DNA from: a virus
Taxonomy: Duplodnaviria > Heunggongvirae > Uroviricota > Caudoviricetes
Direction: 5' to 3' (one strand)
IMG/VR virus record: IMGVR_UViG_2609459833_000015
Coordinates: 1 to 17,614 of that record
DNA: 17,614 bases
Positions 1 to 14,611 of the stretch are shown here, piece by piece (position 1 is the stretch's first letter; each line of letters begins with the position of its first letter). Position numbers and translations under genes: made by a program. The notes below the pieces were generated by a model that was not told where the DNA came from, made no database searches, and saw only the letters and a list, made by a program, of their open reading frames with translations.

Positions 1-393
1 CTAATCATTTTTTACTTTTTTGGGCAGCCAGTCGTCCATCTCCAGCCTTACACCCAGCATCGACAGACATCCGTCAATAAATCCTTCAGCAATCTGCATC
101 TCAATTCGTATTGCCTTTTCGCTCTTCTTTCTTGTTCTGGCAATCTGCCTTTTTGATATGCGCAGCAGATAATGAGCTACCAGCAGCGAATACTCGTCCG
201 GTTTTTTCTTCTTCAGGCGCGTAAGGCAGTTTTCGATGATAAGGCCGTCATCATCGCTGCAGGCCGGGCGAGGTTTAGCGGTGGATGGTAAAAGGCCTTT
301 AAATCCAGCAGCTATCGGAGAATAGTCCACCCCGGTGTTACCACTTGCCGCCCATGCCCCCCAGCGTTCAAGAACCATCTGAATATCACGCAT
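1..393 (-). CDS. Late-gene antitermination protein Q (lambdoid Q family)
   Basis: Translation MRDIQMVLERWGAWAAS... matches my recollection of E. coli prophage Q proteins; ATG at 393 preceded by TTTGTGGAGAAAGTTG (SD GGAG); the track ORF 1..408 begins at a TTG; last gene before the expected late operon. Confidence 0.8.
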   Translation of the reverse strand: MRDIQMVLERWGAWAASGNTGVDYSPIAAGFKGLLPSTAKPRPACSDDDGLIIENCLTRLKKKKPDEYSLLVAHYLLRISKRQIARTRKKSEKAIRIEMQIAEGFIDGCLSMLGVRLEMDDWLPKKVKND

Positions 394-410
394 CAACTTT
401 CTCCACAAAA

Positions 411-1406
411 TCAGGACAGCACACCAATCGCCAGTGCGCGATCGATAAAACGAAATATCAGCTCCAGTTGGGAACCATACTTATCTTCAAATGCCACGGT
501 ATCCACATGCAGTTCGTCATGGTGTTTTCTGCACAACGGCAACACAAAAAGGTCATGCGCTTTTGTCCCCATACCACCCTGGCCGTGACCAATCAGATGA
601 TGCGGATCATCAGCTGGCTTTCCACAACATGCACACGGCTGCGTCTTAACCCAGCGAGTGTACTTTTCATTAACCCAGCGACGACGTTTGGGGCGTAACA
701 TAAAAGACTCCGGCGACTCCGGATCCACTTTCAGCGCCAGCACCTTTTTCGCTTTATCCCGGATAATACTGGTGGCAGTAACCGAAGGTACAAGGTCACT
801 CTCCCGGGTGACAGACGGCAAAACAGGCTTCGGTAATCTCAGGGCCTTACGGGCTGCACTTTCCGGTAAAGCATCCGCCAGGTCATTACGAACCAGCCAC
901 CAGCACAGTTCCGGCATTGTCACGACGTGACTGTCATCAAAACCAAGATCACGGCGCACAACAGACAACACCCAGCGGGCACAGTTATCCGTTGCCATTG
1001 CTTCCAGCCGTTCCGTGAACTGGTCACGGAGAAGATTGTCACAGTGCCAGCACAGACGGATTGCGCCTGGCGCGTGCCGCATTGTGGTCATGTTCTCGCT
1101 GTGCCAGTCGGAATGAGGCCACTGACAGCCCTTTTCACGAAGTAACCAGCTCTCAAGGCATTCCACGCCACCAGCACGACGGATCACCGCCTCATGGCGG
1201 AACACGGCCCGAACGGCAGGATCATCCGCCAGCGGTTGTGATGATGCCGGAACGGCACCACTGGCAAAAGATGAATAACGTTCCGGCTCAGGCTCCAGCA
1301 GGACACGCCCCTGCATAAACAGGGGCATCAGCTCTGAACCTGGCCTGAACAATACGATCCCCATACGCGGGGCGATTTCAGGGGTCAGTAGTGCTCTCAC
1401 GGTCAC
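411..1406 (-). CDS. DUF968-like prophage protein (YdfU-like) with C-terminal Cys/His-rich motif
   Basis: C-terminal CACCGKPADDPHH...LCRKHHDELH motif recalled from DUF968/YdfU proteins; start uncertain (GTG at 1406 one nt after the KilA-N stop, or ATG at 1364). Confidence 0.55.
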   Translation of the reverse strand: MTVRALLTPEIAPRMGIVLFRPGSELMPLFMQGRVLLEPEPERYSSFASGAVPASSQPLADDPAVRAVFRHEAVIRRAGGVECLESWLLREKGCQWPHSDWHSENMTTMRHAPGAIRLCWHCDNLLRDQFTERLEAMATDNCARWVLSVVRRDLGFDDSHVVTMPELCWWLVRNDLADALPESAARKALRLPKPVLPSVTRESDLVPSVTATSIIRDKAKKVLALKVDPESPESFMLRPKRRRWVNEKYTRWVKTQPCACCGKPADDPHHLIGHGQGGMGTKAHDLFVLPLCRKHHDELHVDTVAFEDKYGSQLELIFRFIDRALAIGVLS

Positions 1407-1407
1407 C

Positions 1408-2223
1408 TCAATGAACGGTATCGAGCAGCTTTAACAGCTCAGGGAATCGGGATTCGAAGAAATGCGGCTGCGTCTCGCGCGGATTTGCAGGACTGGTGAT
1501 GTTCTTGCCGAACATGCAGCCTTTCGCCGTCAGCGACCAGAATTTTTTGATGTTGTTAATCCCGGTACGGCTGTATCGTTCGCGTTGTTCAACGATCCCC
1601 AGCTTCGCCATCTGGTGATATGCCTGATTAGCCGTCAGGCGGATACCATACTGCTTCAGCAGTGCACTCAGCGACAGCGTAGGGCGGCTTGAACCATCTG
1701 GCGCATCAGCAGGTGCATCAATGGCATAGATCGGCATAAGTTCAGGAAGACCAGCTACCTTTGATAATTTCTGGTATGCACCAAGTTTCGAGGAGTTTGA
1801 CAGATTTAGAGTCTTTGCTGCTGATTCAAGCAGAATGACCCCGGATTTAATTTTGTCGGATGTGGTTTCTTCTGGTGATGAATTATGAAGCGCATCAAAA
1901 GTACGTATCACTTTTAAGCTGAATGCCGGGCTGATCCACATTGCATATGCATAGACCAGCTCTTTACAGACATACGTCCCACCATTGCGCCCCTGAATGG
2001 TGATGACAGGAATACTACGGGAATCTCCCGTAGTTTCTTCTTCCAATAATTCCACAAGAGCCTTCGTTTCAGGACGACGCATAAACTCGTGAACTTCCAG
2101 CGAACGGGAGGAGCGATTCTCACCAGCGGCAAGAAGAGCAGCTTTCTGAAGGTCGTTAAGACAGTAGTTAGATTCGAAGTACTGGCGCACAGAAACGCCA
2201 TCAATTACAAGCAACTGATTCAT
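1408..2223 (-). CDS. KilA-N domain protein
   Basis: N-terminal IDGVSVRQYF...QGRNGGTYVCKELVYAYAMWISPAFSLKVI fits the KilA-N consensus; ATG at 2223 with SD GGAG in TTTGTGGAGAAACCA; the track ORF extends to a GTG at 2235. Confidence 0.75.
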   Translation of the reverse strand: MNQLLVIDGVSVRQYFESNYCLNDLQKAALLAAGENRSSRSLEVHEFMRRPETKALVELLEEETTGDSRSIPVITIQGRNGGTYVCKELVYAYAMWISPAFSLKVIRTFDALHNSSPEETTSDKIKSGVILLESAAKTLNLSNSSKLGAYQKLSKVAGLPELMPIYAIDAPADAPDGSSRPTLSLSALLKQYGIRLTANQAYHQMAKLGIVEQRERYSRTGINNIKKFWSLTAKGCMFGKNITSPANPRETQPHFFESRFPELLKLLDTVH

Positions 2224-2385
2224 TGGTTTCTCCACAAATTTTTATCCACGAGCGGGACTGCACTCCCTTTTCGTTGATGCAGGATGAACTTACTGCGATT
2301 TTTAATAGTTATCAAGGATACACTGTTCATAAATACAGTATCTTTAACGAGGTAATACCCAAATTTAGGGTGTTGCTCAATTCCG

Positions 2386-2781
2386 TTACCGAGTTGCTAA
2401 TTTGCAACTCGCTTTTTCGTACTTACTGATAGTGATCTCGACCTTCCCTTCCGGGATAACCGGTCCCCACTCCACCAGCATTCTTTTCACCTGGCTGTCG
2501 TCTTCCCACACACCCGCGTGGGTCAGGGCGTCAAACAGCGCCTTGTTATAGTTGTCCAGATCGCGGATCCGGTTATCCGGAGGAAACAACACGATCTCCA
2601 CTGAAGCAGGTGCCGACGTTGGTTTCGGCAGACGACGTAACTGCTCAACTATTGCTGCACACGCCGCGCTCTGGAATTTTCGCCCCGCCGCGCTTATCAG
2701 GCTCTTACCAGCAAACGCCCCTTTGTTGGGGTGTCGCCAGTACGTGTTCACGCTGGGCGGAAAAGGCAGTATTAGCTTCAT
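2386..2781 (-). CDS. rusA: RusA-family Holliday junction resolvase
   Basis: LPFPPSVNTYWRH...RDLDNYNKALFDALTHAGVWEDDSQV resembles RusA (PPS.N.Y, RDLDN, DD motifs); ATGA overlap with the upstream gene stop. Confidence 0.8.
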   Translation of the reverse strand: MKLILPFPPSVNTYWRHPNKGAFAGKSLISAAGRKFQSAACAAIVEQLRRLPKPTSAPASVEIVLFPPDNRIRDLDNYNKALFDALTHAGVWEDDSQVKRMLVEWGPVIPEGKVEITISKYEKASCKLATR

Positions 2782-3104
2782 ACTTTCAGGCCCCTCTCAT
2801 GTAACCAGTGGGCTGCACGCAGCCTGGCGTTTGCCTCACCGGCAAGCAGGGCGCGGATAATCCCGACCGCCTCGCTGTCGTCGTCCTTCACCGCGGTATG
2901 AAGAGTGATACCCCGGGCCACGCCACGCTTTATCGTGATGACACCTTTTTTCTCCAGTGCGCGAAGATGCTCCACCGCTGCATTCACCGAACGGTATCCC
3001 AGCATGGTTGCCACCTCCTGATTGGTTGGCGGGAAGCCACGTTCTTTCTGATAAGAAATCAGCATATCCAGCACCTGCTGCTGGCATTGAGTTAATGTCG
3101 TCAT
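2778..3104 (-). CDS. LexA N-terminal DNA-binding-domain-only protein (no S24 peptidase domain)
   Basis: LTQCQQQVLDMLISYQKERGFPPTNQEVATMLGYRSVNAAVEHLRALEKKGVI parallels the LexA N-terminal winged helix; only 108 aa; ATGA overlap with the Dam stop. Confidence 0.65.
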   Translation of the reverse strand: MTTLTQCQQQVLDMLISYQKERGFPPTNQEVATMLGYRSVNAAVEHLRALEKKGVITIKRGVARGITLHTAVKDDDSEAVGIIRALLAGEANARLRAAHWLHERGLKV

Positions 3105-3754
3105 GCCGCCATCTCCCTGACCAGTTTTTCCGCCTGCTGGCGAACCTGCGCCAGAAATGCCTCACCACATGCCTCAAGTTCATCGCGCCCGATGTAGCTG
3201 ATTGCCGCTCCCTTCCAGGTCTTGTCGAAAACAGCAATAGCACCAGCGAAGAAAGCACCTGTTGGCACCTGCTTTTCGTCTTTCGGGATAAACCAGGCTG
3301 GCAGTTCAAAACCAATACGCCCGCGAATAAAAGCAATATGATCTGCATCTTCCGGCCACCACACTTCGCTGGTGGCCGCTTTGATCAGGAAAACATAGCG
3401 CCCGCCTTTATCACGCATGGCACTGGCATGCTTCATGATGTAACGCATGCCGGTGATGTATTGTCCCTCATGCTGACTGGCGCGGCTGTACGGGGGATTA
3501 CCAAAGGCAGCACCTTTAAGCTCCGCAAGACGTTCTGACCAGTCATGTGCCAGCGCGTTGTCTTCCGCCGTGTAATACGCGGCACATTTGGCGTTATCAC
3601 CGTCAGTAAACAGATCCAGAACAAACGGGCCAAACAGGGTGTTAATTCCCCAGAAAATGTTGTCCGGCGTGCGCCACTGATCGCCCACTTCCTTCAGTTC
3701 ATGGGCTGGTTTGTTCCGTAGTTCCACCAGCGCCTGGCAATATTTATTACTCAT
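3101..3754 (-). CDS. Phage Dam-type DNA N6-adenine methyltransferase
   Basis: NPPY catalytic motif (GNPPYS) and overall similarity to prophage Dam methylases as recalled; ATG at 3754 overlaps the upstream stop (TAATG); the track ORF extends to 3787. Confidence 0.8.
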   Translation of the reverse strand: MSNKYCQALVELRNKPAHELKEVGDQWRTPDNIFWGINTLFGPFVLDLFTDGDNAKCAAYYTAEDNALAHDWSERLAELKGAAFGNPPYSRASQHEGQYITGMRYIMKHASAMRDKGGRYVFLIKAATSEVWWPEDADHIAFIRGRIGFELPAWFIPKDEKQVPTGAFFAGAIAVFDKTWKGAAISYIGRDELEACGEAFLAQVRQQAEKLVREMAA

Positions 3755-4242
3755 TAAGCCCCCACGTAATTCCCTGACAGATACCACTCATCACCCGCTA
3801 CAGCGCGCTTTCTGCTTTTCCGTAAGCACCGCTCACGACGCGCCAGAAAATTGTTTCGTTCTGGCTGGGAGTGGCTTTCACGGAATGCCGCCATCCACAC
3901 GGTTGCAGCACGACGGTATAAGCCCCTGGACTCCAGTTCTTCCGCCTGGCGGGTCAGGCACAAAATCACCCGGGGATCGTTAGTGCCGACATAGAAATTG
4001 CGCACAGGTATGGTTTCAAGAACAGGTTGCAGTTTCTCCTCCTGCGATATCTCAGCCTGGTGTGGGAAATGTCTGCGTGTTTTCCCTTCACAACAGTGAG
4101 CCACACGGCCACTCTGACGTAACTTGCTTGCTGACTGCAGAACGCACTGTCGTGAGTAACCAGCAAAAGCATCCGCAATGTCACCTGAAGTACACCCCGG
4201 ATGGGCTTCAATGAATTTCTGTACATCGTTCATCAGACTCAT
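3754..4242 (-). CDS. PerC/Pch-like domain protein (possible transcriptional regulator); same length as CPS-53 YfdN as I recall it
   Basis: C-terminal LESRGLYRRAATVWMAAFRE...RRERC resembles the PerC-family core motif; start uncertain (ATG 4242, ATG 4233 or GTG 4248); directly coupled to the O-like gene stop. Confidence 0.45.
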   Translation of the reverse strand: MSLMNDVQKFIEAHPGCTSGDIADAFAGYSRQCVLQSASKLRQSGRVAHCCEGKTRRHFPHQAEISQEEKLQPVLETIPVRNFYVGTNDPRVILCLTRQAEELESRGLYRRAATVWMAAFRESHSQPERNNFLARRERCLRKSRKRAVAGDEWYLSGNYVGA

Positions 4243-4244
4243 GA

Positions 4245-5228
4245 TCACCCCCTGAATCCTGTCGGGATCTGGCTGTAGTCCACGTTGTCGTAACTGGCTT
4301 TGAAGTACGGGTCCTCGCGTCTGGCTGCAGATACCGCAGGAACTTCCCAGGATTCTTCGAAATGACGATCCGGACCAAAGAACGTGACAGCCTGTTTCAC
4401 AAATTGTGTGCCGCTATTGCCCATCGCAGATACCCAGCCCGCGTAGCGTTTCACACCTTCCAGCATGGTTTCGGGGTTTACCCCCTCGTTCAAACGGGCT
4501 TTCCAGGCTTTGAAGGCTGCTGATTTTGAATTGCCACCAGCACGTTTGGGATATTCCTGCCAGGCCTGTTCAAATTCCGGTGAATATTCCTGTCGGGCAG
4601 AACGCGCTGGCGCAGACGCGTCAGCGGATGCATCAATAGTGTTTTTAGTCTCCGTTGTAATCTCTGTAGTAATCTCTGTATTTGTATCAACATTCGGCGT
4701 ATCCCCTGTTCCGTTATGACGTCGGGGGGTGTTCCGTTTTAACGTAATAGCTGTATCGCTGATTGCATTATTGCTGTTACTTTCTGGCGAAACAGAAGAA
4801 GGTGTGGTGATGGCCGCAATTGCCTGTGGGTTGATCCCGACAAACAAAATATTGCTGCATTTCACCCCATCGAGCATTTCCACCGTGCGTAAATCCAGAG
4901 TAATAAACCCTGCATCGCGCAGACGCTTCAGCGCATCTGCGGTTTCCCTTTTCCCGAAACCAAACTGCTCAGCAAACGCCTGGTAGCTTCTTTGCAGTTT
5001 GTCGCCCTGAAAACGCTTGCGATATCCCAGCAACGCTCCGGTGTGCTCATCCCTGACCTCTGTCGGGCGGTACCAGTAAACGATCTCTGAAAGCAGAGCG
5101 ATAGCCGTCGCATCCGGACGCCCACTGGGTAGTCGAATATATTTCCACCAGGTCGCAGGTGTAACATTGCCGGAAATATTAATTTGACCAATAGCCATAA
5201 CTTCCGGTGTGGGGGCGTAACGGCTCAT
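4245..5228 (-). CDS. Replication initiation protein (lambda O-like replisome organiser)
   Basis: Position after cro/CII-like genes; two-domain layout with a repeat-encoding linker (TEITTEITTET, DASADASA); strong SD AGGAGG before ATG 5228; C-terminal region resembles the conserved C-terminus of phage replication proteins. Confidence 0.6.
   Translation of the reverse strand: MSRYAPTPEVMAIGQINISGNVTPATWWKYIRLPSGRPDATAIALLSEIVYWYRPTEVRDEHTGALLGYRKRFQGDKLQRSYQAFAEQFGFGKRETADALKRLRDAGFITLDLRTVEMLDGVKCSNILFVGINPQAIAAITTPSSVSPESNSNNAISDTAITLKRNTPRRHNGTGDTPNVDTNTEITTEITTETKNTIDASADASAPARSARQEYSPEFEQAWQEYPKRAGGNSKSAAFKAWKARLNEGVNPETMLEGVKRYAGWVSAMGNSGTQFVKQAVTFFGPDRHFEESWEVPAVSAARREDPYFKASYDNVDYSQIPTGFRG
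4655..4744. repeat. Iteron-like direct repeats inside the O-like gene (candidate replication origin)
   Basis: Tandem 12-mers GTTGTAATCTCT / GTAGTAATCTCT / GTATTTGTATC (4655-4689), plus TGTTCCGTTATGACG (4707-4721) and TGTTCCGTTTTAACG (4730-4744) 23 bp apart. Confidence 0.4.
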
Positions 5229-5524
5229 ACAACCTCCTTCCGCAGCATGAGAATTGTGTAGCCACGCGCAGGTTGTAGTCTGGCTTTTGCATCAATAGTA
5301 AGCGTTGCAATTTTTCGGATATGAAGATAACCAGCTCTTTCCAGTGCCAGGGTTTCCCTGAATATCGCTTGCTTAGAACAACAGCAGAAATCAGCAAGCA
5401 CCTGATGATCAATAACTCTCTCGCCTTCACCGTCTGAAGAACCCGACATCAAAACACGCAACATAATCAGGCGCTGAATCGGGTTATCGAAAGCACATCC
5501 GCACACAAACTGAAAACAGTTCAC
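5225..5524 (-). CDS. Hypothetical protein, possible helix-turn-helix
   Basis: GTG at 5524 preceded by SD GGGAGGTG; stop overlaps the O-like start (ATGA); no family recognised. Confidence 0.4.
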   Translation of the reverse strand: MNCFQFVCGCAFDNPIQRLIMLRVLMSGSSDGEGERVIDHQVLADFCCCSKQAIFRETLALERAGYLHIRKIATLTIDAKARLQPARGYTILMLRKEVV

Positions 5525-5745
5525 GCCACACCTCCCAGACGCTTAAACATTTTTCCGGAGCAAAAGGCTATAAGCGGCATACTGACGCGGTAATTACGGC
5601 CCAGCGGTTCACAAACCACCTTCTGACATTCACGGTCAACCAGGCTGACACGTAGAACATGCCCTGCAGGCGTGGTGTACCACTGACCAGGACGAGGACA
5701 ACGGAAAGTCTGATTGGTAAACCGTTTGAAAATATTCCGGATCAT
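5521..5745 (-). CDS. Hypothetical small Cys-containing protein
   Basis: ATG 5745 overlaps the Rha stop (ATGA); SD AAGGGGG five nt upstream; 74 aa. Confidence 0.4.
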   Translation of the reverse strand: MIRNIFKRFTNQTFRCPRPGQWYTTPAGHVLRVSLVDRECQKVVCEPLGRNYRVSMPLIAFCSGKMFKRLGGVA

Positions 5746-6287
5746 TTGCGCCCCCTTACCTCTGAAGGGTTCAGCGACAAATTTATGAGACTGGCCAGTA
5801 GCGCCGCGTCGTTGATGCGGTCATACAGACTTACAGCCAGCGGGGATTCGGCTTTTGCCAACATGGGATAAAGCTGCTGCAGCCAGACCTGATGAATTGA
5901 TGAAATGTAGGAATAGAGAACGCTGGCGTTATGTGCAACGTCGCTCAGTACAGAGGGATTTGAAAGCTGTTTCTCCATCTGGTTAAAGGCATTGATGTAT
6001 GCCTCTTTGAACTGGGCAGCACGTTTACCCGTGAAGCCCATGGCAAGAAACGCAAAACCGTCGCGGGTGATTTGATAGCAAGGTAGTTTGCGGCCTGTGC
6101 AATCGGTGTAATCACTCACCGAAAAATTGCGGGAAGTGAATGATGCAGAGCATTCAAGCGTGCGGATCTTTTTCAATACATCGTCATGCTGCTTGCAGAA
6201 ATATTCGGCAACGGCCAAAGAAGAAGTAACAGCCTGACCATCAACGATGGCAATTTCAGGTTGAGTGAGGGTTGGGATCGTAGCCAT
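5742..6287 (-). CDS. Rha-family phage regulatory protein
   Basis: FSVSDYTDCTGRKLPCYQITRDGFAFLAMGFTGKRAAQFKEAYINAFNQME matches the Rha family core as recalled; ATG 6287 with SD GGAGG; the track ORF 5742..6485 has a non-conserved N-terminal extension. Confidence 0.85.
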   Translation of the reverse strand: MATIPTLTQPEIAIVDGQAVTSSLAVAEYFCKQHDDVLKKIRTLECSASFTSRNFSVSDYTDCTGRKLPCYQITRDGFAFLAMGFTGKRAAQFKEAYINAFNQMEKQLSNPSVLSDVAHNASVLYSYISSIHQVWLQQLYPMLAKAESPLAVSLYDRINDAALLASLINLSLNPSEVRGRK

Positions 6288-6487
6288 GATGGCAGCCTCC
6301 GTTGACTGTGGAAAACTTCCACCACCGGAGCTGCGAAACACACAGGTGGCAGACGTACAGGGTTCGCGTACCGGCGTCAACAGACACCGGCGAGCCTTTC
6401 GGCTCCCCTGCACACCCCACCATAATTCTGGAGTGAGGAAACGCGCGCAAAAAAACCGCTGAAGCGTCATATATCGCATTGACAATT

Positions 6488-6883
6488 TCAGGACGCCAAT
6501 CCCGGCACCCGCTTTATAAGGTGCAGAGCAGTGTAACGTCCCGAAATTGCAGAATCAATATGCTGGTGGTCCTTCACACTCAACAAAATCACGCCTGAAT
6601 TTCCACAAAGGACTAAAGCACTCATGCGGGTAGTCTTTGCGAAGATAGATAACGCGCTGTGTTTCTGGCTCCCAACGAATAACATGGACATAAAGCCCTC
6701 TTCCGTCACGAAACCAGCGGTTAAGTTCCTGCACAACTCGCCCCCCACAGTCAGGTAAAGTTCTCTGTGGTTACTTACAGCCAGGTGATTTGGTAATCTG
6801 CATTCATGCCGTAACAACAGGTGTTCAGCGACGCTGACCACCAGCTGTTGCGACAAACGGTTATTTGCCGTTAAACTATTCAT
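6488..6883 (-). CDS. Hypothetical protein
   Basis: ATG 6883 overlaps the upstream stop (ATGA); SD GGAG in TGTGGAGAAACTAACGC; no family recognised. Confidence 0.35.
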   Translation of the reverse strand: MNSLTANNRLSQQLVVSVAEHLLLRHECRLPNHLAVSNHRELYLTVGGELCRNLTAGFVTEEGFMSMLFVGSQKHSALSIFAKTTRMSALVLCGNSGVILLSVKDHQHIDSAISGRYTALHLIKRVPGLAS

Positions 6884-7494
6884 GCGTTAGTTTCTCCACA
6901 ACCAGAAGCAATCGACGCCACGACGCCCGGAGCTGCACACTCGCGGGCGTTACTATTTTCTGGAGCGCAGAAGATTTTGTAGACCAGTGCTGCATGCTCC
7001 TGGAGCTTCGAAATTGAGAGGTACAGCTCGTCGTTAATTGCTGTCTTCTCATGCGGTTCCACTACACCGTCTTCGATTGCTGAACGAATCTGTCTGGAAT
7101 AACTGCCGATCTGTTCAATGACTTCCAGCAGACGCTGGTTAATATCGGCGTTGTCCACATCCTCGACGTCAGGAAGAGACACAAAGACGCCATTTGCAGA
7201 CTGCGCCACAGCGTCAGCAATGAAGTGAGTTCCACCAGCACGTTGTAAAATCATTGCCCATCCCAGCGGGAAAATCTGATCGCCATCGGCACGAAGGCGA
7301 TTGAATAAAGCGTTCTCTGTTACATCCAGCCAGTCAGCTGCTTCAGCGTAACCACCCGGCAACGCTGCGATAGTTTTTCTGACAGCTTTCACGTACCACT
7401 CAGGCTGTTTTTCTACTTTCCAGTGATGCTTACCCACGGTTAGCCTCATCGTTCTGTGGTTTCTGTTAATCGATTTATCCATTAGATTTTTCAT
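6880..7494 (-). CDS. Putative CII-like lysogeny regulator (CP76/YdaT-like)
   Basis: Immediately downstream of the cro-like gene; LDVTENALFNRLRADGDQIFPLGWAMIL region resembles phage regulatory CII (CP76) proteins as recalled; start ambiguous (ATG 7494, 7482 or 7449; the track ORF starts at GTG 7551 and overlaps cro). Confidence 0.45.
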   Translation of the reverse strand: MKNLMDKSINRNHRTMRLTVGKHHWKVEKQPEWYVKAVRKTIAALPGGYAEAADWLDVTENALFNRLRADGDQIFPLGWAMILQRAGGTHFIADAVAQSANGVFVSLPDVEDVDNADINQRLLEVIEQIGSYSRQIRSAIEDGVVEPHEKTAINDELYLSISKLQEHAALVYKIFCAPENSNARECAAPGVVASIASGCGETNA

Positions 7495-7675
7495 AAAGCT
7501 CAGGTTTAAATGGCAACCGTCCGCAAGTTCTATATGCAGCTTCTGCTGCACGTCCTTTTGGAATTAACTGGCCCGGACGGTTTCGCCACTGATAAACGGC
7601 TTCAGTTGTTATGCCGAAAAAAGCAGCAACTTTCTCAATACTGCCGAAGTAGCTTTCGATATCGTCAGTTGTCAT
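7475..7675 (-). CDS. Cro-like HTH regulator (YdaS/Cro family)
   Basis: 66 aa; HTH VAAFFGITTEAVYQWRNR; divergent from the CI repressor; SD GGAGGG before ATG 7675. Confidence 0.7.
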   Translation of the reverse strand: MTTDDIESYFGSIEKVAAFFGITTEAVYQWRNRPGQLIPKGRAAEAAYRTCGRLPFKPELYEKSNG

Positions 7676-7772
7676 ACGCCCTCCAAACTAAGTTTTATTA
7701 GATGCTAATTACAAATCTATCTTTGGTCAATAAAAACTAAGATTACTTAGCAATTCAAGAAATGGTGCTCCT
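7676..7772. promoter_or_regulatory. Immunity-region divergent promoter/operator region (PR-like leftward, PRM-like rightward)
   Basis: 97-bp AT-rich spacer between divergent cro-like and CI genes; minus-strand TTGACC (complement of 7725-7730) with a possible TAGCAT -10; AACTAAG at 7686-7692 and 7735-7741, and inverted CTAAG-N4-CTTAG at 7737-7750. Confidence 0.55.
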
Positions 7773-8399
7773 ATGGAAACGGTTGGTCAGCGTATAAAAG
7801 CTCTGAGAAGAGTTACCGGAACGTCCCAGAAAGAATTGGGTAAATTTTGTGGAGTAAGCGACGTTGCTGTGGGGTACTGGGAGAAAGACATCAATACCCC
7901 TGGTGGGGAGGCACTTTCGAAATTAGCGAAGTTCTTCAATACGTCAATAGATTACATTCTTTATGGTGCTGAGTTTGAAGGCAAACTCGTCACAAACATG
8001 CGCAGAGTTCCTGTAATATCGTGGGTTCAGGCTGGGCAGTTTACTGAGTGCAGGGCAGCAGAAGTGTTTAGTGAAGTGGACAAGTGGGTAGATACATCAT
8101 TAAAGATTGGTGATAACTCATTTGCATTAGAGGTTAAAGGTGACTCCATGACTAACCCTAATGGCCTCCCAACAATACCAGAAGGCGCAACAGTGATTGT
8201 AGATCCAGATGCAGAACCTCGTCATGGAAAAATAGTCATCGCTCGACTTGATGGAACAAACGAAGCTACAGTAAAAAAATTAGTCATCGATGGCCCTCAA
8301 AAGTTTTTAGTGCCATTAAATCCTCGGTATCCCAACATCCCTATCAATGGTAATTGCCTTATCATTGGTGTAGTCAAAGGAGTTCAATACGAACTCTAA
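7773..8399 (+). CDS. CI-like repressor (XRE-family HTH N-terminus, S24 LexA-like peptidase C-terminus)
   Basis: N-terminal HTH QKELGKFCGVSDVAVGYWE; C-terminal GDSM Ser-nucleophile motif and downstream Lys; 208 aa; divergent from cro-like gene. Confidence 0.85.
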   Translation: METVGQRIKALRRVTGTSQKELGKFCGVSDVAVGYWEKDINTPGGEALSKLAKFFNTSIDYILYGAEFEGKLVTNMRRVPVISWVQAGQFTECRAAEVFSEVDKWVDTSLKIGDNSFALEVKGDSMTNPNGLPTIPEGATVIVDPDAEPRHGKIVIARLDGTNEATVKKLVIDGPQKFLVPLNPRYPNIPINGNCLIIGVVKGVQYEL

Positions 8400-8605
8400 G
8401 ACCTCTCTTCTCTAACTAAGGCACCGAACTAAGAAAAGTTTGGTGTTTTCTCTTGCCATAATAACTAAGTTAAGTTAGATTTTATATCAAAGATAACGAA
8501 CAGGCAGGACGCCCACGAAGTAGCCGCCTGGGGCATATGAAGTCCAGGATGATTCGTTGAGTCATGTTGTGCCACCAGGCACTCATGTTAAAGCAGGTGT
8601 ATGAA

Positions 8606-8881
8606 ATGAAAGTCCAGATTTTAAACAATAACTGTGAAGTCGTTTGGTCATACGACATAGCCGCCCCTGTAGATCAGAGCGGCGATAGCTGGACCAATGG
8701 GAAACATCAGATTATGGCTGGAGTTGTGTTCTCTTTACGCCGTGCTTTGGAACAGGCTGAAGTATTTCCATCAGACCCTGAATGGAAATGGCCTTTTTCT
8801 ATTTGTCCAAATTCGGAGAGCACATTTCAGAAAATTGGTCAGAAAGTCGCACTCGAAGAGCATCAGCCAACTGTTTCCTGA
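8606..8881 (+). CDS. Hypothetical protein (first ORF downstream of CI)
   Basis: ATG 8606 with SD AGGTG six nt upstream; 91 aa, acidic, Trp-rich; 3' end overlaps the convergent ORF 8799..9044 by 83 bp and contains a plus-strand hairpin plus T-run. Confidence 0.35.
   Translation: MKVQILNNNCEVVWSYDIAAPVDQSGDSWTNGKHQIMAGVVFSLRRALEQAEVFPSDPEWKWPFSICPNSESTFQKIGQKVALEEHQPTVS
8764..8798 (+). terminator. Candidate intrinsic terminator (plus strand)
   Basis: ATTTCCAT (8764-8771), 10-nt loop, ATGGAAAT (8782-8789), then GGCC and TTTTT (8794-8798); AU-rich stem so likely weak. Confidence 0.3.
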
Positions 8882-9044
8882 TTTTTTCAGGTAACTCGTC
8901 GGCATCGCAGAAACAACAACGCTCGATCATGTTGAAAGCCGATTCGTAGAACTGTTTCTGCTGAGTGTCGCTGAGACAGGAAAAGAGCGACGTTACGATG
9001 ATTTTATTAATTGCATTATCAAGTTCTTTTTCATCAAAAGTCAT
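8799..9044 (-). CDS. Hypothetical protein (convergent to CI)
   Basis: ATG 9044 with SD AAGGA seven nt upstream; 81 aa with helical-looking hydrophilic composition; no family recognised. Confidence 0.4.
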   Translation of the reverse strand: MTFDEKELDNAINKIIVTSLFSCLSDTQQKQFYESAFNMIERCCFCDADELPEKIRKQLADALRVRLSDQFSEMCSPNLDK

Positions 9045-9284
9045 TTGATTTTCCTTTTATGTATACGGGCTTAAAAGGATACCACCGAGCCTGAAGTGGT
9101 GAAAAGACAGGCACATAACAGCTAAGTATTTTCAACCAAAGAGAATCCTTAGCGTTGTGGTGAATGCGGCTCAGCGCACGCGGGTTAAGGTTGAGGCTGA
9201 CAGTCGACCTTCTGTGGATACCCACCCGTCTGGTGTGCAACCTTCGCCAGGCACCGGGAGGCACCCGGCACCACAACTTTATGC

Positions 9285-9344
9285 TGTGTGTAGTCCTGGC
9301 GGTACCAGTTTGTACCCTTGCTTCCGGCTGGTACCGTCCTTTTT
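9285..9344 (+). ncRNA. DicF-like small RNA candidate ending in an intrinsic terminator
   Basis: 11-bp stem GGCGGTACCAG (9298-9308) paired with CTGGTACCGTC (9328-9338) followed by TTTTT (9340-9344); 5' arm GGCGGUACCAGUUUGUACCC closely resembles the DicF segment GGCGGUAUCAGUUUUACUCC as I recall it; 5' end not determinable. Confidence 0.45.
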
Positions 9345-9481
9345 ACAAAACAGAGAAGAGCATCACCGGACGACGGGCTCATAACCCAATCCATCCGGGC
9401 GGCAGTCACCGCAGGTGTTCTTCTCTGTTTTGTGGAGAAACTAACCGACCTTGCAGGGTCGATATGATGAGGAGCAGCAAA

Positions 9482-9844
9482 ATGGCTAGCGAACGCAGTA
9501 CTGATGTGCAGGCATTTATCGGGGAGCTGGACGGCGGCGTATTTGAAACCAAAATCGGCGCAGTTCTCAGTGAAGTCGCTTCCGGTGTGATGAACACGAA
9601 AACCAAAGGTAAGGTCTCACTCAACCTGGAAATCGAACCATTTGATGAGAACCGTGTGAAAATCAAACACAAACTCTCATATGTTCGCCCGACTAACCGC
9701 GGGAAAATTTCCGAAGAAGACACCACCGAAACGCCGATGTATGTCAATCGCGGTGGTCGCCTGACTATTCTGCAGGAAGACCAGGGACAATTACTGACTC
9801 TTGCCGGTGAACCTGACGGAAAACTCCGCGCAGCAGGTCATTAA
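9482..9844 (+). CDS. YfdP-like prophage protein
   Basis: 120 aa from ATG 9482 (SD GAGGAG 9469-9474), matching YfdP length and position upstream of YfdQ/R-like genes; alternative start ATG 9464. Confidence 0.5.
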   Translation: MASERSTDVQAFIGELDGGVFETKIGAVLSEVASGVMNTKTKGKVSLNLEIEPFDENRVKIKHKLSYVRPTNRGKISEEDTTETPMYVNRGGRLTILQEDQGQLLTLAGEPDGKLRAAGH

Positions 9845-9909
9845 TATCGTTCTTAATTAACTGATTATTTATCTCATCACTGAATATCTTAATATAGTGA
9901 GGACTTATT

Positions 9910-10734
9910 ATGTCTCAGAACTTAGACGCAACCGCAATTAATCAAATCCATGCCCTTATTTCTGCTCAGGGTGTTAATGAAATTATCAGTAAGATTGGTG
10001 CCGATGCTGTGGCATTGCCTGAGAATTTCCGCATTCATGATCTGGAAAAATTTAATTTAAATCGCTTCCGTTTCCGTGGTGCGCTTTCCACTGCCAGCAT
10101 CGATGACTTTACCCGTTATTCTAAAGATCTTGCAGATGAAGGCACCCGCTGCTTTATCGATGCCGATAATATGCGTGCCATCAGTGTGCTTAACCTGGGT
10201 ACTATTGATGAACCAGGTCACGCAGATAACACCGCCACTCTCAAACTGAAAAAGACAGCACCGTTCTCTGCCCTGCTGTCTGTTAATGGCGAGCGTAACT
10301 CCCAGAAGTCACTGGCAGAATGGATTGAAGACTGGGCCGACTATCTTGTGGGCTTTGATGCTAATGGTGACTCTATTAAGGCAACAAAAGCGGCTGCGGC
10401 AGTCCGTAAAATCACGATTGAAGCAAACCAGACCGCTGATTTTGAAGATAATGACTTCAGCGGCAAACGCTCTTTGATGGAGTCTGTCGAAGCGAAAACC
10501 AAAGACATTATACCAGTAGCATTTGAGTTTAAATGCGTTCCGTTTGAAGGCCTGAAAGAACGTCCGTTTAAATTACGCCTCAGCATTATCACTGGCGATC
10601 GTCCTGTACTGGTTCTGCGCATTATTCAGCTGGAAGCAGTGCAGGAGGAAATGGCTAACGAATTTCGTGATCTGCTTGTTGAGAAATTCAAAGACAGCAA
10701 AGTAGAAACCTTTATTGGTACTTTCACCGCCTGA
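9910..10734 (+). CDS. YfdQ-like prophage protein
   Basis: 274 aa, the length I recall for CPS-53 YfdQ; immediately followed by an HD-domain YfdR-like gene; SD GAGGA before ATG 9910. Confidence 0.55.
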
Positions 10735-10861
10735 TTTCATTACTGCAAATGCCCCTGCGGGGGCATTTATGGAAACGTAATTAACTCAATAATCACCGGA
10801 TGGTGAGGGCTTCCTTTTACCCAAATTCAGCGCGGTGCAGCGCATATACGTGGAGAACAAA

Positions 10862-11398
10862 ATGTCATTTATTAAAACTTTTTCCGGGAAGCATTTTTAT
10901 TATGACAAGATAAATAAAGATGACATCGTTATTAACGATATCGCGGTTTCCCTTTCAAATATCTGTCGCTTTGCCGGTCATCTTTCTCACTTCTACAGCG
11001 TCGCCCAACATGCGGTGCTTTGCAGCCAGCTGGTGCCGCAGGAATTTGCTTTTGAAGCGTTAATGCATGATGCAACAGAAGCGTATTGCCAGGACATCCC
11101 AGCTCCACTGAAACGCCTTCTTCCTGACTATAAACGGATGGAAGAAAAAATAGACGCCGTAATCCGTGAGAAATACGGGTTACCTCCTGTTATGAGCACG
11201 CCAGTGAAATATGCCGATCTCATTATGCTGGCAACCGAACGTCGCGATCTCGGGCTTGATGATGGCTCTTTCTGGCCTGTACTGGAAGGTATCCCGGCGA
11301 CAGAGATGTTCAAAGTTATTCCACTGTCACCAGGCCATGCCTACGGGATGTTTATGGAACGTTTTAACGAGTTATCGGAGTTACGCAAATGCGCATGA
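10862..11398 (+). CDS. HD-domain phosphohydrolase (YfdR-like 5'-deoxynucleotidase)
   Basis: HD signature (VAQHAV ... LMHDATE); 178 aa from ATG 10862 with SD GGAG; the track ORF begins at an upstream GTG (10835). Confidence 0.7.
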   Translation: MSFIKTFSGKHFYYDKINKDDIVINDIAVSLSNICRFAGHLSHFYSVAQHAVLCSQLVPQEFAFEALMHDATEAYCQDIPAPLKRLLPDYKRMEEKIDAVIREKYGLPPVMSTPVKYADLIMLATERRDLGLDDGSFWPVLEGIPATEMFKVIPLSPGHAYGMFMERFNELSELRKCA

Positions 11399-11751
11399 AT
11401 GTTTTCGAAATGGAAGGGTTTCTTCGCGGGAAATGTGTACCACGAGATCTGAAAGTGAATGAAACAAATGCTGAGTACCTGGTACGTAAATTCGATGCGC
11501 TTGAAGCTAAATGTGCGGCACTGGAAAACAAAATAATACCAGTGTCAGCTGAACTGCCGCCAGCAAATGAAAGTGTTCTGTTATTTGATGCTAATGGAGA
11601 AGGCTGGCTAATTGGCTGGCGTTCTCTCTGGTACACCTGGGGACAAAAAGAAACCGGAGAATGGCTGTGGACATTTCAGGTCGGGGACCTTGAAAACGTC
11701 AATATCACTCACTGGGCAGTAATGCCGAAAGCACCGAAGAATAAAAAATGA
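11389..11751 (+). CDS. DUF551-like protein (YfdS-like)
   Basis: 120 aa; C-terminal GWLIGWRSLWYTW...THWAVMP resembles the DUF551 domain; SD GGAG eight nt before ATG 11389; overlaps the YfdR-like stop. Confidence 0.55.
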   Translation: MRMNVFEMEGFLRGKCVPRDLKVNETNAEYLVRKFDALEAKCAALENKIIPVSAELPPANESVLLFDANGEGWLIGWRSLWYTWGQKETGEWLWTFQVGDLENVNITHWAVMPKAPKNKK

Positions 11752-11951
11752 GCGTGATAAAAACTCATACAGGAATTGTTATCACCCGAGACGGTCCGCA
11801 GGTAAAAAAACTGCACCAGACAAAGCGGATGTGGGTCGTCGGAAAAAACGAGTTTTACCACAAAGAAACCGGACGCCGCCACTTTGCAGAAAATACTCGC
11901 CGCCGACTGCTGATCGATACCATCAAGCCTATCGAGGTGAAGCATGTTTAA
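11748..11951 (+). CDS. Hypothetical small protein (67 aa)
   Basis: ATGA overlap with the upstream stop; basic small protein; no family recognised. Confidence 0.4.
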   Translation: MSVIKTHTGIVITRDGPQVKKLHQTKRMWVVGKNEFYHKETGRRHFAENTRRRLLIDTIKPIEVKHV

Positions 11952-12183
11952 ACAGAACGAAAAATCTATCGCTCAAATTGCTGAGTATATCCCGCGTGCG
12001 TGCCGGGATATGCAGTTGCAGGAAGCCAAAGCACGCCTGGAGAAAAAAATTGCGCTCTATATCGATGACGGCTGTGATGCCGCCGTTCTTAACGCGGCGT
12101 TCGCGCCAGCTCTTAACAGTCATACGCGAAAGTCTTTTTTTTCGTGCATCACAGCGCAGATCCGTAAAGGAGGCAACCAGTGA
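11944..12183 (+). CDS. Hypothetical small protein (79 aa)
   Basis: SD GAGGTG (11934-11939) before ATG 11944; stop overlaps the next gene's GTG start. Confidence 0.45.
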   Translation: MFKQNEKSIAQIAEYIPRACRDMQLQEAKARLEKKIALYIDDGCDAAVLNAAFAPALNSHTRKSFFSCITAQIRKGGNQ

Positions 12184-12995
12184 GCAACATTAACTATCAG
12201 GTACTGCGTGAAAAGGCAGAGAAAGCAACTAAAGGAAGCTACATCGTAGGGCATACATCTGTTAACCAACACGGCAATTTAACAGGAGTTTTTGTTTGTC
12301 AAAAATGGAAAGGAGAACCCGGTGGCGTAATTGCAGAATGTCACGTTAACTGCCTGGTTGAAACAGATGCTCAGGCTTATGCAAACGCTGAATTCATAGC
12401 AGAGGCTAACCCGGCTACCGTGCTGGCACTGCTGGATGAACGGGAAAGAAACCTGCAATACATCAAAAGCCGCGATCAGGAGAACGAGGATATTGCGCTA
12501 ACGGTAGGGAAGCTGAGAGTTGAGCTTGAGGAAGTAAAACAACACGCTGAAGAATTATCCGAAACCAAGGCTGTTCGTAACCAATGGCGGCCAGATATTT
12601 GCCCAATAACCGGACGTGCATTTTTCATGTGGATTGAGCATCCAACATTGGGAAATGTGCCGACATATGGTGGCCCATTAGATAGTTACACCATTCCAAC
12701 AAAGGACGGTGACGGTGAGTTTTCATGTGAGCGTTACGATCATGATTTTGGCGGTTGGGTAGAAAGCGAATGTCTTGGGTTATATCTGATTGATGATAGA
12801 GAACAATGCAGGGTCTACGAACTGGAGGAACGCGTTAAGGAACTGGATGCTCGGGAAATATCGCTCCCGGAACGTAGCAGCATGCTTCATCGAACAGATT
12901 TTCACGATGATTACCAAACGGTAATGGCATACAAAGTTTCTGAAGTCATCGCTGCAATCCGCGCCGCAGGCATTCGCATCAAAGGAGGTGAGTAA
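12180..12995 (+). CDS. Ead/Ea22-like protein
   Basis: GTG start with strong SD AGGAGG; central coiled-coil-like region and Trp/Cys-rich C-terminal half typical of Ea22-like prophage proteins as recalled. Confidence 0.55.
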   Translation: MSNINYQVLREKAEKATKGSYIVGHTSVNQHGNLTGVFVCQKWKGEPGGVIAECHVNCLVETDAQAYANAEFIAEANPATVLALLDERERNLQYIKSRDQENEDIALTVGKLRVELEEVKQHAEELSETKAVRNQWRPDICPITGRAFFMWIEHPTLGNVPTYGGPLDSYTIPTKDGDGEFSCERYDHDFGGWVESECLGLYLIDDREQCRVYELEERVKELDAREISLPERSSMLHRTDFHDDYQTVMAYKVSEVIAAIRAAGIRIKGGE

Positions 12996-13171
12996 TGCGT
13001 GTGGCATGTATCGGCTTGTTACCGTACCCGACTCGTTTTTGGGCTTCTGCGCTAATTGCAAAGCCACATGTCCTGATGGCTGACAACATCATCCCGGCAC
13101 CAAAGCGCCGCCATACCGGTATTGCAGCGGCACGACGAGCAGCAAAGAAACGCAGGAGAACAAAACGATGA
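12995..13171 (+). CDS. Small basic protein (58 aa; not in the ORF track because below its apparent 60-aa cutoff)
   Basis: ATG 12995 overlaps the Ea22-like stop (TAATG) with SD AGGAGGTG; stop overlaps the next ATG (ATGA); C-terminus AAARRAAKKRRRTKR. Confidence 0.4.
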   Translation: MRVACIGLLPYPTRFWASALIAKPHVLMADNIIPAPKRRHTGIAAARRAAKKRRRTKR

Positions 13172-13350
13172 AAAACCGTAAGGCAAAAATTCTGTTAGCT
13201 CGCAGAAACGGTGTTGGGGTCTGGCGATGGTTGAGGATTAGTAACAGACGAGTGAGGTTGACGGGGTGTTGCGGGGTGATGGGGCACAGTTGTTGCAAAA
13301 AGCCTAGCGCGTCACAGAACAGGCGGAAGAAAGGGTACGCAGTAAGATGA
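13168..13350 (+). CDS. Small Arg/Trp-rich protein, paralogue A (60 aa)
   Basis: Shares MKNRKAK, WLR(I/V)SNRRV(R/V)L and SA(S/A)QNR blocks with the next ORF; conserved residues use different synonymous codons (aga vs cgc, cga vs cgt). Confidence 0.5.
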   Translation: MKNRKAKILLARRNGVGVWRWLRISNRRVRLTGCCGVMGHSCCKKPSASQNRRKKGYAVR

Positions 13351-13538
13351 AAAACCGTAAAGCAAAGATGCTTATCTCCCGTGTATACAGACGTTGCTAT
13401 CCCAGCCAGTGGTTGAGAGTTAGCAATCGCCGTGTGGTGTTGTACTTATATTCTGGAATTGCCAGAGAGGGAATCAAAGATAAGCGCAGCGCGGCGCAAA
13501 ACCGCTGGAAAAACCACTTACGCACTAAAGGAGCCTGA
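13347..13538 (+). CDS. Small Arg/Trp-rich protein, paralogue B (63 aa)
   Basis: Tandem paralogue of 13168..13350 with an in-frame 3-nt indel; ATGA overlap with the upstream stop. Confidence 0.5.
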   Translation: MKNRKAKMLISRVYRRCYPSQWLRVSNRRVVLYLYSGIAREGIKDKRSAAQNRWKNHLRTKGA

Positions 13539-13539
13539 T

Positions 13540-13749
13540 ATGGCTATTTCCGCAAGTTACACCATGCATCTCTACTGTGATTGTTGCCAGTGTACAAATG
13601 GTAAATATCAAACGCCAGACTTCGGTGAGTATATCGGTACGTCATGGGCTGGCTGTGCAAAAGAGGCGCGCAAGGATGGCTGGCGAATAAGCAAAGACAA
13701 AACACGTGCTTTTGCGCCCGGGCATAAAGTTTTGAGGATTAATAAATGA
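13540..13749 (+). CDS. Small Cys-rich protein (69 aa; possible metal-binding CxCCxC)
   Basis: ATG 13540 with SD AGGAG; HLYCDCCQC motif; the track ORF 13432..13749 has an N-terminal extension overlapping the previous gene. Confidence 0.45.
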   Translation: MAISASYTMHLYCDCCQCTNGKYQTPDFGEYIGTSWAGCAKEARKDGWRISKDKTRAFAPGHKVLRINK

Positions 13750-14195
13750 CCACTATTACCAGAGAAAACGCGGAAATTAAATCATTCATCACTGGTTTCC
13801 TGAGCGACCCGGCGCACGATAACCAATCTTCAAGCAGCCTGCTTGCCAATGTGTTTCGTATCGCACTGGCATCGTTGGAAGCAGAGCCAGTCGCGTGGCG
13901 ATATCGCTACGTGAAAAAAGGTGTTACGGACTCTCAGGGGGATTCGTGGGTTGGTGACTGGAAATATGTACCGACAAAAGAGGATTGCAACGACAGACCG
14001 AACTATGAAATTCAGGCGTTATTCACTGCCCCGCCTGTGCCACTGACATCAGAAGGATTGATTAAAGCAGTGCGTTTCTATGAACAGGTTAAGCGTGAAA
14101 ATCCGCCAGTCGAAACCGGAGCATGGAAAGACGCTGTTGACTGGGTACTCAAAGAGGCTTGCCAGGCTGTAAACATTGGCATCAAAGGAGAGTGA
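13746..14195 (+). CDS. Hypothetical protein (149 aa)
   Basis: ATGA overlap with the upstream stop; SD GAGGA; shares an N-terminal module (RIALASLEAEPV) with the 14612..15556 gene. Confidence 0.5.
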   Translation: MTTITRENAEIKSFITGFLSDPAHDNQSSSSLLANVFRIALASLEAEPVAWRYRYVKKGVTDSQGDSWVGDWKYVPTKEDCNDRPNYEIQALFTAPPVPLTSEGLIKAVRFYEQVKRENPPVETGAWKDAVDWVLKEACQAVNIGIKGE

Positions 14196-14196
14196 T

Positions 14197-14418
14197 ATGG
14201 CTAACTCATTACTTGAAACCTGCAACAACTAGCAGATTCAGAGGGCGGAGATTTTATCTCGCAATCCAGATATGGCAATGACAATTGATAACCTGGATAC
14301 GCTAATTGAACGGACCGTGCGTTCTGCAATTGATATAGCACATCGAGTAGATTGGGATTTCAGAGAAGCGGAGCGACTCGCTAAAGAGCAGGCGAAAGCA
14401 GCGGGTAAAGGAGAGTGA
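14197..14418 (+). pseudogene. Small gene interrupted by an in-frame amber codon (TAG 14230-14232)
   Basis: ATG 14197 sits behind the same AAAGGAGAGTGATATG cassette used by the neighbouring gene; the frame runs 11 codons, TAG, then 61 more codons ending GKGE-stop at 14416-14418 directly coupled to the next gene. Confidence 0.35.
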
Positions 14419-14419
14419 T

Positions 14420-14608
14420 ATGTCACTGACGGTGAGGCAATTAATCAGCAAGCTCAGAAAAATGCCTCCTGAGGCTGTCGTGGTCTGGCAGGGCTATGAA
14501 CAATCAGAGTGTGAGTATAACGACTTTGTAGGTCATGTTGCTGATATTACAGATGAAAATTCATCATCCTTTGACCCAGAAGTGCGCGTTGTGGCGCTAA
14601 GAGGATAA
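14420..14608 (+). CDS. Hypothetical small protein (62 aa)
   Basis: SD AAAGGAGAG before ATG 14420. Confidence 0.45.
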   Translation: MSLTVRQLISKLRKMPPEAVVVWQGYEQSECEYNDFVGHVADITDENSSSFDPEVRVVALRG

Positions 14609-14611
14609 CCC

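Follow-up and report, generated by a model that had tools for sequence, protein, structure and literature searches.

Where does a lambdoid prophage of Escherichia coli begin its replication, and which DNA sequences would mark the place? We addressed this question in a stretch of 17,614 nucleotides (IMG/VR virus record IMGVR_UViG_2609459833_000015, positions 1 to 17,614; hereafter the window), which is the early region of such a prophage, with 100% identity to strain 2015C-3121. Its minus strand carries a replication initiator gene (4245-5228; 327 aa, from open reading frame (ORF) and translation), in the middle of which two sets of direct repeats lie side by side, a pair of 16-mers and a tandem array of 12-mers. 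In phage lambda, the origin lies in the linker-coding part of gene O and consists of dyad-symmetric iterons and an AT-richer region; the N-domain of O binds there and its C-domain recruits the helicase. In lambda-related phages the iterons differ and the adjoining region is kept. From sequence comparison, we propose that positions 4593-4796 are probably the replication origin of the prophage, which would lie within its own initiator gene, in the part that codes for the linker (probability about 0.7). That the 12-mers are an unwinding element read by the initiator is a separate proposal, to which we give slightly less than even odds.

Both repeat sets fall in the predicted linker of the initiator

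According to an AlphaFold2 model (38 homologues), the protein comprises a confidently predicted N-terminal winged-helix domain (aa 1-144, encoded by 4797-5228), presumed to bind the iterons, then a disordered linker (aa 145-212, encoded by 4593-4796; predicted local distance difference test score, pLDDT, below 50), a helical C-terminal domain (aa 213-298, encoded by 4335-4592; pLDDT 75-93) and a disordered tail, all on the minus strand. Both sets of repeats fall inside the part that encodes aa 145-212, as the first-pass annotation of this DNA had claimed for the inter-domain linker. The GC content is 35-37% at 4640-4699 compared with 52-62% in the adjacent C-terminal flank.

The pair reported there as 15-mers (4707-4721 and 4730-4744, 23 bp apart) is real, and each copy is one base longer. 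The two 16-mers are 88% identical, start 23 bp from each other and both match ACGTNNNAACGGAACA exactly on the minus strand: iteron 1, ACGTTAAAACGGAACA, lies at 4730-4745 (gene nt 484, frame 0, read T-L-K-R-N) and iteron 2, ACGTCATAACGGAACA, at 4707-4722 (gene nt 507, frame 2, read R-R-H-N-G-T). Their consensus, ACGTyAwAACGGAACA, has partial dyad symmetry with a core ACGT-N3-4-ACG. On the same strand, ACGCCGAATGTTGATACA at 4683-4700 may be a degenerate third iteron; it follows iteron 2 at 22 bp and precedes the first 12-mer by 21 bp, and a relative from Salmonella salamae (L321) has ACGCCCAATGTTGATACA, the same sequence at the same position. Within the window alone these matches are not significant, the observed count being reached in 14 of 200 shuffles.

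We then compared homologues with 44-70% protein identity, together with phage relatives found by tblastn. The core AC[GA]T-N3-4-A[AC]G occurs in 2-5 copies at 22-23 bp spacing within the 115 nt upstream of the 12-mers, and in 0-1 copies in the other ~860 nt of each gene. This pattern holds in E. coli, Salmonella Newport, Yersinia, Serratia, Acinetobacter phage YMC-13-01-C62 and Geobacillus phage PT9.1; conservation of the repeats among homologues at the DNA level is thus found in six genera, and the outcome that would have spoken against the first-pass annotation, a peptide repeat kept without its DNA, was not observed. The relatives with four iterons (Yersinia, Serratia and Geobacillus) have 4-5 copies of the core, and the Geobacillus phage uses four perfect copies of the palindrome GGGGTGTGACGTTnnAACGTCA as iterons. 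In the S. salamae relative the strict core pattern finds no match and looser iteron copies are visible in the sequence. In E. coli variants with 93-94% identity, both repeat sets are unchanged. Since a spacing of 22-23 bp puts successive copies in different frames, the 16-mers are a DNA repeat and not a peptide repeat; judged by these comparisons, they behave as iterons.

The tandem 12-mer array of the window

The tandem 12-mers announced at 4655-4689 exist, about 10 nt away from those coordinates. The array occupies 4644-4679 on the minus strand, begins at codon 184, encodes the peptide TEITTEITTETK and is our candidate for an unwinding element or a site of contact between the initiator and single-stranded DNA. 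It consists of three units, read 4679->4668 (ACAGAGATTACT), 4667->4656 (ACAGAGATTACA) and 4655->4644 (ACGGAGACTAAA); Tandem Repeats Finder reports 4649-4680 with period 12 and 2.7 copies. As with the 16-mers, the matches are not significant in the window alone (observed count reached in 18 of 200 shuffles). The first 12-mer begins 21 bp after the start of the degenerate iteron and 43 bp after that of iteron 2, where a next iteron would be expected. Wherever this distance was read in relatives, the first 12-mer-like unit likewise starts 21 nt past the start of the last iteron; in the Geobacillus phage this first unit is the degenerate ACAAAGACTACT. The prophage of E. coli PU-1 (L004) has four units where the window has three, the two prophages being otherwise 99% identical.

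Both peptides mentioned by the first-pass annotation, TEITTEITTET and DASADASA, are present in the translation. The segment encoding DASADASA is not significant as a DNA repeat; what we observed instead is a weak imperfect palindrome of 16 bp, CGCAGACGCGTCAGCG, at 4611-4626 downstream of the array. The best perfect stem that the window has downstream of the array is just 5 bp long.

The 12-mer is nearly invariant across bacterial phyla

The 12-mer was searched for in other genomes with the pattern ACAGAGANTACTACAGAGANTAC, which stands for two tandem units with 21 fixed bases and for which we estimate less than one chance match per collection. It matches at least 120 viral contigs and, in a collection with one genome per species, at least 120 species from many phyla. 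The hosts include Gamma-, Beta- and Alphaproteobacteria, Desulfuromonas, Campylobacterota, Nitrospirota, Nitrospinota, Chloroflexota, many Firmicutes and one bacterium of the candidate phyla radiation (CPR), and the loci span 29-64% GC. The motif was also found in 129 sequenced phages and 82 plasmids, where the genes that carry it are nearly always annotated as replication initiator, O-like, DnaD-like or primosomal. Two hits, L169 in an archaeal metagenome-assembled genome (MAG) and L392 in a giant-virus MAG, are false positives of the patterns, caused by long unrelated peptide-repeat arrays.

Arrays at 213 non-redundant loci range from 2 to 6 units, with three as the commonest number. A variant of the motif, ACAAAGAnTAC, is present in Bacillus phage 0105phi7-2. 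In units outside the pair used as search seed, 10 of the 12 positions carry about 2 bits of information, and the flanks about 0 bits. The 130 nt upstream of the 12-mers contain direct repeats, with dozens of unrelated repeat sequences among the loci (median repeat score 11, compared with 0 in control segments). A distant DNA search gave the same picture, since in phage genes of Klebsiella and Acinetobacter the 12-mer stretch is the only one in common with the window and each gene has its own iterons ahead of it. The 12-mers are thus not iteron-like, as had been supposed at first, and are better described as a nearly invariant, family-wide element beside hypervariable iterons. Downstream of the array, perfect stems of at least 6 bp are present within 70 nt in 52% of the loci, against 13-16% of controls. 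The enriched hairpins are short and GC-rich, for example TTGTCCGGTTGC..GCAACCAGAC, and lie 10-21 nt past the array; the counterpart in the window, at 4611-4626, is weak.

Inspection by eye of the 12-mer as DnaA boxes, IHF sites, DnaA-trios or primase trinucleotides gave nothing convincing. A full-text string search, with coverage that mostly excludes subscription journals, found no mention of the motif in the literature. Embedded iteron origins are known from lambda and SPP1; a near-invariant 12-mer kept across phyla beside hypervariable iterons is not familiar.

The constraint on the 12-mer seems to act on the DNA

The repeats might merely reflect a flexible and repetitive peptide linker (TEITTEIT...), with no function as DNA. 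Indeed, the array lies inside the disordered linker of the AlphaFold2 model, it stands in the same frame in 126/126 viral and E. coli cases and in 109/122 genomic cases, and its coding copies always read T-E-x-T. We therefore scanned for any coding of TExTTExTTE. The copies in replication genes are always written ACA GAG AnT AC[A/T], although ACA makes up 32% of the Thr codons and GAG 39% of the Glu codons in the same ORFs, and codons are mixed in unrelated TExT repeats. Synonymous positions are thus fixed, whereas the only free base of the 12-mer alters the residue (I, N, T or S). In addition, the motif is present in non-coding DNA and with in-frame stop codons, and the 16-mers, at their spacing, yield no peptide repeat. 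The peptide explanation is already contradicted by these observations, and we consider it extremely improbable.

Iterons and 12-mers in frames that are not open were found together in intergenic DNA of Bacillus, Natroniella, Dehalococcoidales, Orenia and Planococcus genomes, in several Hyphomicrobiales MAG contigs and in the Bacillus plasmid pBSG3. On pBSG3, a small rolling-circle plasmid (L335, NC_014104.1, 700-870), iterons, an ACAGAGAnTACw tandem and a palindrome occur without the gene, and the iterons resemble those of Bacillus phage PM1. Further gene-less copies of the module are L170 (~3950-4075), L205 (~3370-3500), L201, L141 and L162. A gene for the N-domain lies near only one of the non-coding copies (L231), and the neighbours of L170, L205 and L201 are housekeeping genes. 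The fixed codons, the non-synonymous free base and these non-coding copies argue that the constraint acts on the DNA; some of the copies may be relics, and they are therefore a support for this conclusion and not a proof of it.

The gene-less copies may have decayed to relics, travel along as hitch-hiking origins or, as decoys, titrate phage initiators. Cloned origins of lactococcal phages are known to give such protection, the 'Per' resistance. Four contigs of one Hyphomicrobiales MAG (L134, L152, L182 and L187) carry nearly identical non-coding segments with iterons and 12-mers near their ends, which suggests a multi-copy element.

The 12-mer belongs to one N-domain family with exchanged C-terminal domains

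The first-pass annotation called the initiator O-like. This was not confirmed: at E<=0.01 the protein has no match in Pfam or NCBIfam, including Phage_rep_O (PF04492). Its matches to 'O-like' PHROG families are weak (phrog_391, E 8.9e-08), and it matches phrog_270, 'replication initiation protein', with E 8.5e-76. In RefSeq the protein goes under the names 'replication protein', 'hypothetical protein' or 'LvrA C-terminal domain-related protein'. Solved structures searched with the initiator sequence gave no match at E<=1, a profile search of them returned only generic GntR/AsnC helix-turn-helix regions, and Foldseek against the PDB found no match at E<=0.001, with no informative structural match for the C-domain. 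The initiator is a member of a separate and very large winged-helix family, described below, and not a homologue of lambda O.

We clustered 218 complete ORFs that carry the motif. Their parts upstream of the motif fall almost entirely (211/218) into one BLAST cluster and their parts downstream into 42 clusters, DnaD-like (DnaB_2), DnaT, DnaA_N and HNH domains being among the recognisable C-terminal ones. The motif thus belongs to one N-domain family, whose C-terminal modules are exchanged right after it. The N-domain of the window shares 41-54% identity with its counterparts in Geobacillus, Bacillus, Eggerthella and Acinetobacter phages. The window also has both hallmarks of the family: 2-6 ACAGAGAnTACw units about 160 codons into the gene, in the frame T-E-x-T, and direct repeats of about 20-bp spacing just upstream of the array, of which it has two strong ones and one degenerate.

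The exchange is visible in E. coli itself. Of 5426 complete E. coli genomes, 2809 have a match to the DNA of 4245-4639, the C-half, and 222 have the N-half. DNA homology with SfV, mEp460, Stx2 (Shiga toxin) phages and the K-12 prophage CPS-53 (yfdO) is limited to 4245-4639, ending a few bases from the 12-mer array. Judging from these alignments, ~4639 is a mosaic joint between an origin/N-domain module and a C-domain module. The shuffling of 42 C-terminal clusters directly after the array, behind a single N-terminal one, and the end of homology so close to the array in E. coli are what one would expect if the 12-mers were mainly a recombination joint for exchanging these modules, with no direct role in initiation. 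However, SfV-type genes with the same C-half have no ACAGAGAnTACw, therefore that joint did not use the 12-mer. In addition, near-invariance at 10 of 12 positions across phyla, beside flanks free of information, needs purifying selection, and the orphan copies retain iterons and 12-mers together without any gene. We regard a pure recombination role as quite unlikely.

The SfV/mEp460-type initiators offer a second system for comparison. They share the C-half of the window's protein and differ in their N-domain (HTH_36), in their iterons (GTGCAGGAGATTCAC) and in their tandem 12-mer, which is GAACCAGTCAAw. In mEp460 (L001, ~3940-4110, minus strand), five GTGCAGGAGATTCAC-like iterons are followed by the GAACCAGTCAAw tandem. 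This second 12-mer is kept behind three types of iterons, two of which, besides the mEp460 type, were found in viral contigs (L354, L426). Because variable iterons are thus combined with a constant tandem element specific to each family, the 12-mers would be read by the initiator family and not by a universal host factor.

This comparison bears on the proposal that a conserved protein of the host replication machinery (for instance the replicative helicase, its loader or the primase) docks or starts at the 12-mers. Such a role would explain why hosts as distant as Proteobacteria, Firmicutes, Chloroflexota and CPR bacteria have the same motif, and why the motif does not depend on the type of C-terminal domain, of which there are 42. 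However, the loaders of the helicase and the specificity of the primase differ among these phyla. Moreover, the other N-domain family uses GAACCAGTCAAw in the same host and with the same C-domain; the 12-mer is therefore tied to the N-domain family and not to the host. Docking of a host protein is in our opinion doubtful, and we prefer the initiator itself as the reader of the 12-mer.

A DnaT-like tail follows the C-terminal domain

The first-pass annotation had noted that no lambda P, DnaC or DnaB gene follows the initiator gene, and this is correct: the next gene on the minus strand is a PerC-like ORF (3754-4248; PF06069, E 4.5e-09; phrog_1324, 'transcriptional activator'), followed by Dam, and neither a helicase gene nor a gene for a loader (DnaB, DnaC or P homologue) was found there. 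Of the two proteins proposed for a search with helicase-loader profiles, the PerC-like one has no such match, whereas the C-domain of the initiator (aa 213-298) matches phrog_1701, 'DnaD-like helicase loader', and phrog_9327, 'primosomal protein'. This C-domain is common to SfV orf39, mEp460 gp43, the Stx 'Eru6' phages and K-12 YfdO.

The way in which the helicase is loaded had been called unclear; the end of the protein gives a concrete lead. The C-terminal nonapeptide SQIPTGFRG (4248-4274, minus strand) resembles the C-terminus of E. coli DnaT, SQIPPGFRG; eight of the nine residues are identical and both stand at the extreme C-terminus of their proteins. The similarity to DnaT is confined to these nine residues, and Pfam finds no DnaT DNA-binding domain (PF17948) in the initiator.

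Other E. coli prophages have the same N-domain and origin (93-94% DNA identity) with a diverged C-terminal end, and in these the initiator gene is followed by genes for a DnaC-like ATPase and a DnaB-type helicase; 6/6 more distant homologues are likewise followed by DnaC-like and DnaB-type genes. In an alignment, the common C-domain core EYSPEFExAWxxYPKRAGGN...FFGPDRHFEE is continued by one of two tails. Genes that are followed by DnaC and DnaB have ...GFSEQDYGxxxCNW; the window and SfV-type genes, with PerC next, have ...YDNVDYSQIP(T/A)GFRG. From this correlation we infer that the choice of helicase partner depends on the tail and that the prophage would use the host system by imitating DnaT.

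How the proposed origin may work

From the anatomy of the locus, the conservation and co-occurrence of its repeats and the domain structure of the protein, binding, melting and helicase recruitment can be pictured as follows. The N-terminal winged-helix domain would bind the two strong iterons and probably the degenerate one. The duplex would first open at the three tandem 12-mers, which are constant throughout the family and relatively AT-rich; most likely the oligomerised initiator would there contact one strand in a sequence-specific manner, by analogy with plasmid Rep proteins and their 13-mers. The C-domain and the tail would then bring in the replicative helicase; the prophage has no helicase or loader gene of its own, and the host DnaB/DnaC system would be recruited via whatever partner reads the DnaT tail.

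Several points weigh against this picture. The assignment of the origin is computational throughout, for the locus and for the family alike, and the repeat counts inside the window alone are not significant, significance being gained only when other genomes are compared. Just two strong iterons are present in the window, against four in close relatives and the 3-5 usual in the family, and the origin could therefore be weakened. With a GC content of about 35%, the 12-mer array is just moderately AT-rich. Conservation by itself would fit an initiator, a host protein or a helicase as the reader of the 12-mer. The non-coding copies could be decaying remnants that were found only because the search demands an intact motif. 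Finally, two papers on DnaT (PMC13377028, PMC4132743) name no partner for its extreme C-terminal end.

More generally, and only tentatively, the phage initiators of a single, very large winged-helix family may recognise ACAGAGAnTACw in a sequence-specific manner through a conserved surface. The motif would then be a phage counterpart of DnaA-trios and of the plasmid 13-mers, each initiator family having its own 12-mer (GAACCAGTCAAw in the SfV type). If this were true, thousands of origins of phages and prophages across bacterial phyla would unwind exactly where a short fixed DNA tag lies, and the copies without the gene, on plasmids and chromosomes, would serve as hitch-hiking origins or as decoys titrating initiators. 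For the prophage, the analysis locates a probable origin and separates its specificity part, the iterons, from its constant part, the 12-mers. The 12-mer in addition makes origins simple to find in phages and prophages of a very large class, and it raises a clean experimental question, namely what reads it. For E. coli prophages that have no helicase gene, including Shiga-toxin phages, mimicry of the DnaT C-terminus is a specific hypothesis for the recruitment of the host helicase.

Comparison with known origins

The candidate origin resembles ori-lambda in its place, the linker-coding part of the initiator gene, and in its order, iterons followed by an AT-richer region; a palindrome after the array, present in many relatives of the window, is another likeness. 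It differs in that the protein has no sequence relationship to Phage_rep_O, no P-like loader gene lies downstream, a sequence-conserved tandem 12-mer takes the place of a generic AT-rich tract, and there are just two strong iterons.

In Bacillus phage SPP1, oriL lies inside gene 38, contains AB boxes bound by the replisome organizer G38P and an AT-rich unwinding element, and works in vivo and in vitro (PMC5737612). In the SPP1 sequence the AT-rich part is itself a short tandem repeat, which is a further likeness to the window. However, there is no detectable similarity between the N-domains (BLASTP of the initiator against G38P, E 2.6), SPP1 has no ACAGAGAnTACw, and both a loader (G39P) and a helicase (G40P) are encoded by the phage itself.

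In iteron plasmids, the Rep protein contacts a single strand of the 13-mers in the unwinding element in a sequence-specific manner, and the exact 13-mer sequence is required (PMC4081077). TrfA of RK2 and RepE of F, winged-helix initiators with iterons beside tandem 13-mers, are the closest model for the 12-mers, although the RK2 and F origins are non-coding, use DnaA boxes and depend on initiators of another family with two winged-helix domains. The RepA_N plasmid initiators of Gram-positive bacteria (e.g. PDB 4pta) have no sequence match to the protein of the window. In function, the locus would be a lambda/SPP1/RepA_N-like origin embedded in an initiator gene; by membership, its protein is a homologue of neither lambda O nor G38P.

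SfV orf39, mEp460 gp43, Eru6 and YfdO have in common with the window the C-domain, the DnaT-like tail, the gene order Rha-small ORF-rep-PerC-Dam and the absence of a helicase gene, and differ in the HTH_36 N-domain, the GTGCAGGAGATTCAC iterons and the GAACCAGTCAAw 12-mer described above. For SfV, mEp460, the Stx 'Eru' group and their many prophage relatives, the mechanism of replication has been described as unknown, and that of the Eru6 type as uncharacterised (PMC8951638). As a full counterpart of the window we rejected Eru6 (PMC8951638), since only its C-half is common; the Eru1-3 replication types of Stx phages (PMC8044961) are different modules.

Gene neighbourhood

On the plus strand, the window carries an integrase (16328-17614) and a CI-type repressor (7773-8399). 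The minus-strand operon begins with a CII/CP76-like gene, Rha, a 74-aa ORF, a 99-aa ORF and the 327-aa replication protein, and continues with the PerC-like ORF, Dam, a LexA-like ORF, RusA, a KilA-N-type regulator and an HNH endonuclease. The 99-aa ORF (5225-5524, minus strand) overlaps the start codon of the initiator gene and matches phrog_4617 (E 4.1e-29), which is the N-part of a 'replication initiation protein'; an ORF of 99-103 aa stands in the same position in the relatives L004, L005, L322, L324 and L325 and is absent in L006. The LexA-like ORF (2778-3104, minus strand, 108 aa) has no peptidase domain, matches only the N-terminal DNA-binding part of LexA (TIGR00498, positions 1-91) and is conserved in mEp460 and SfV.

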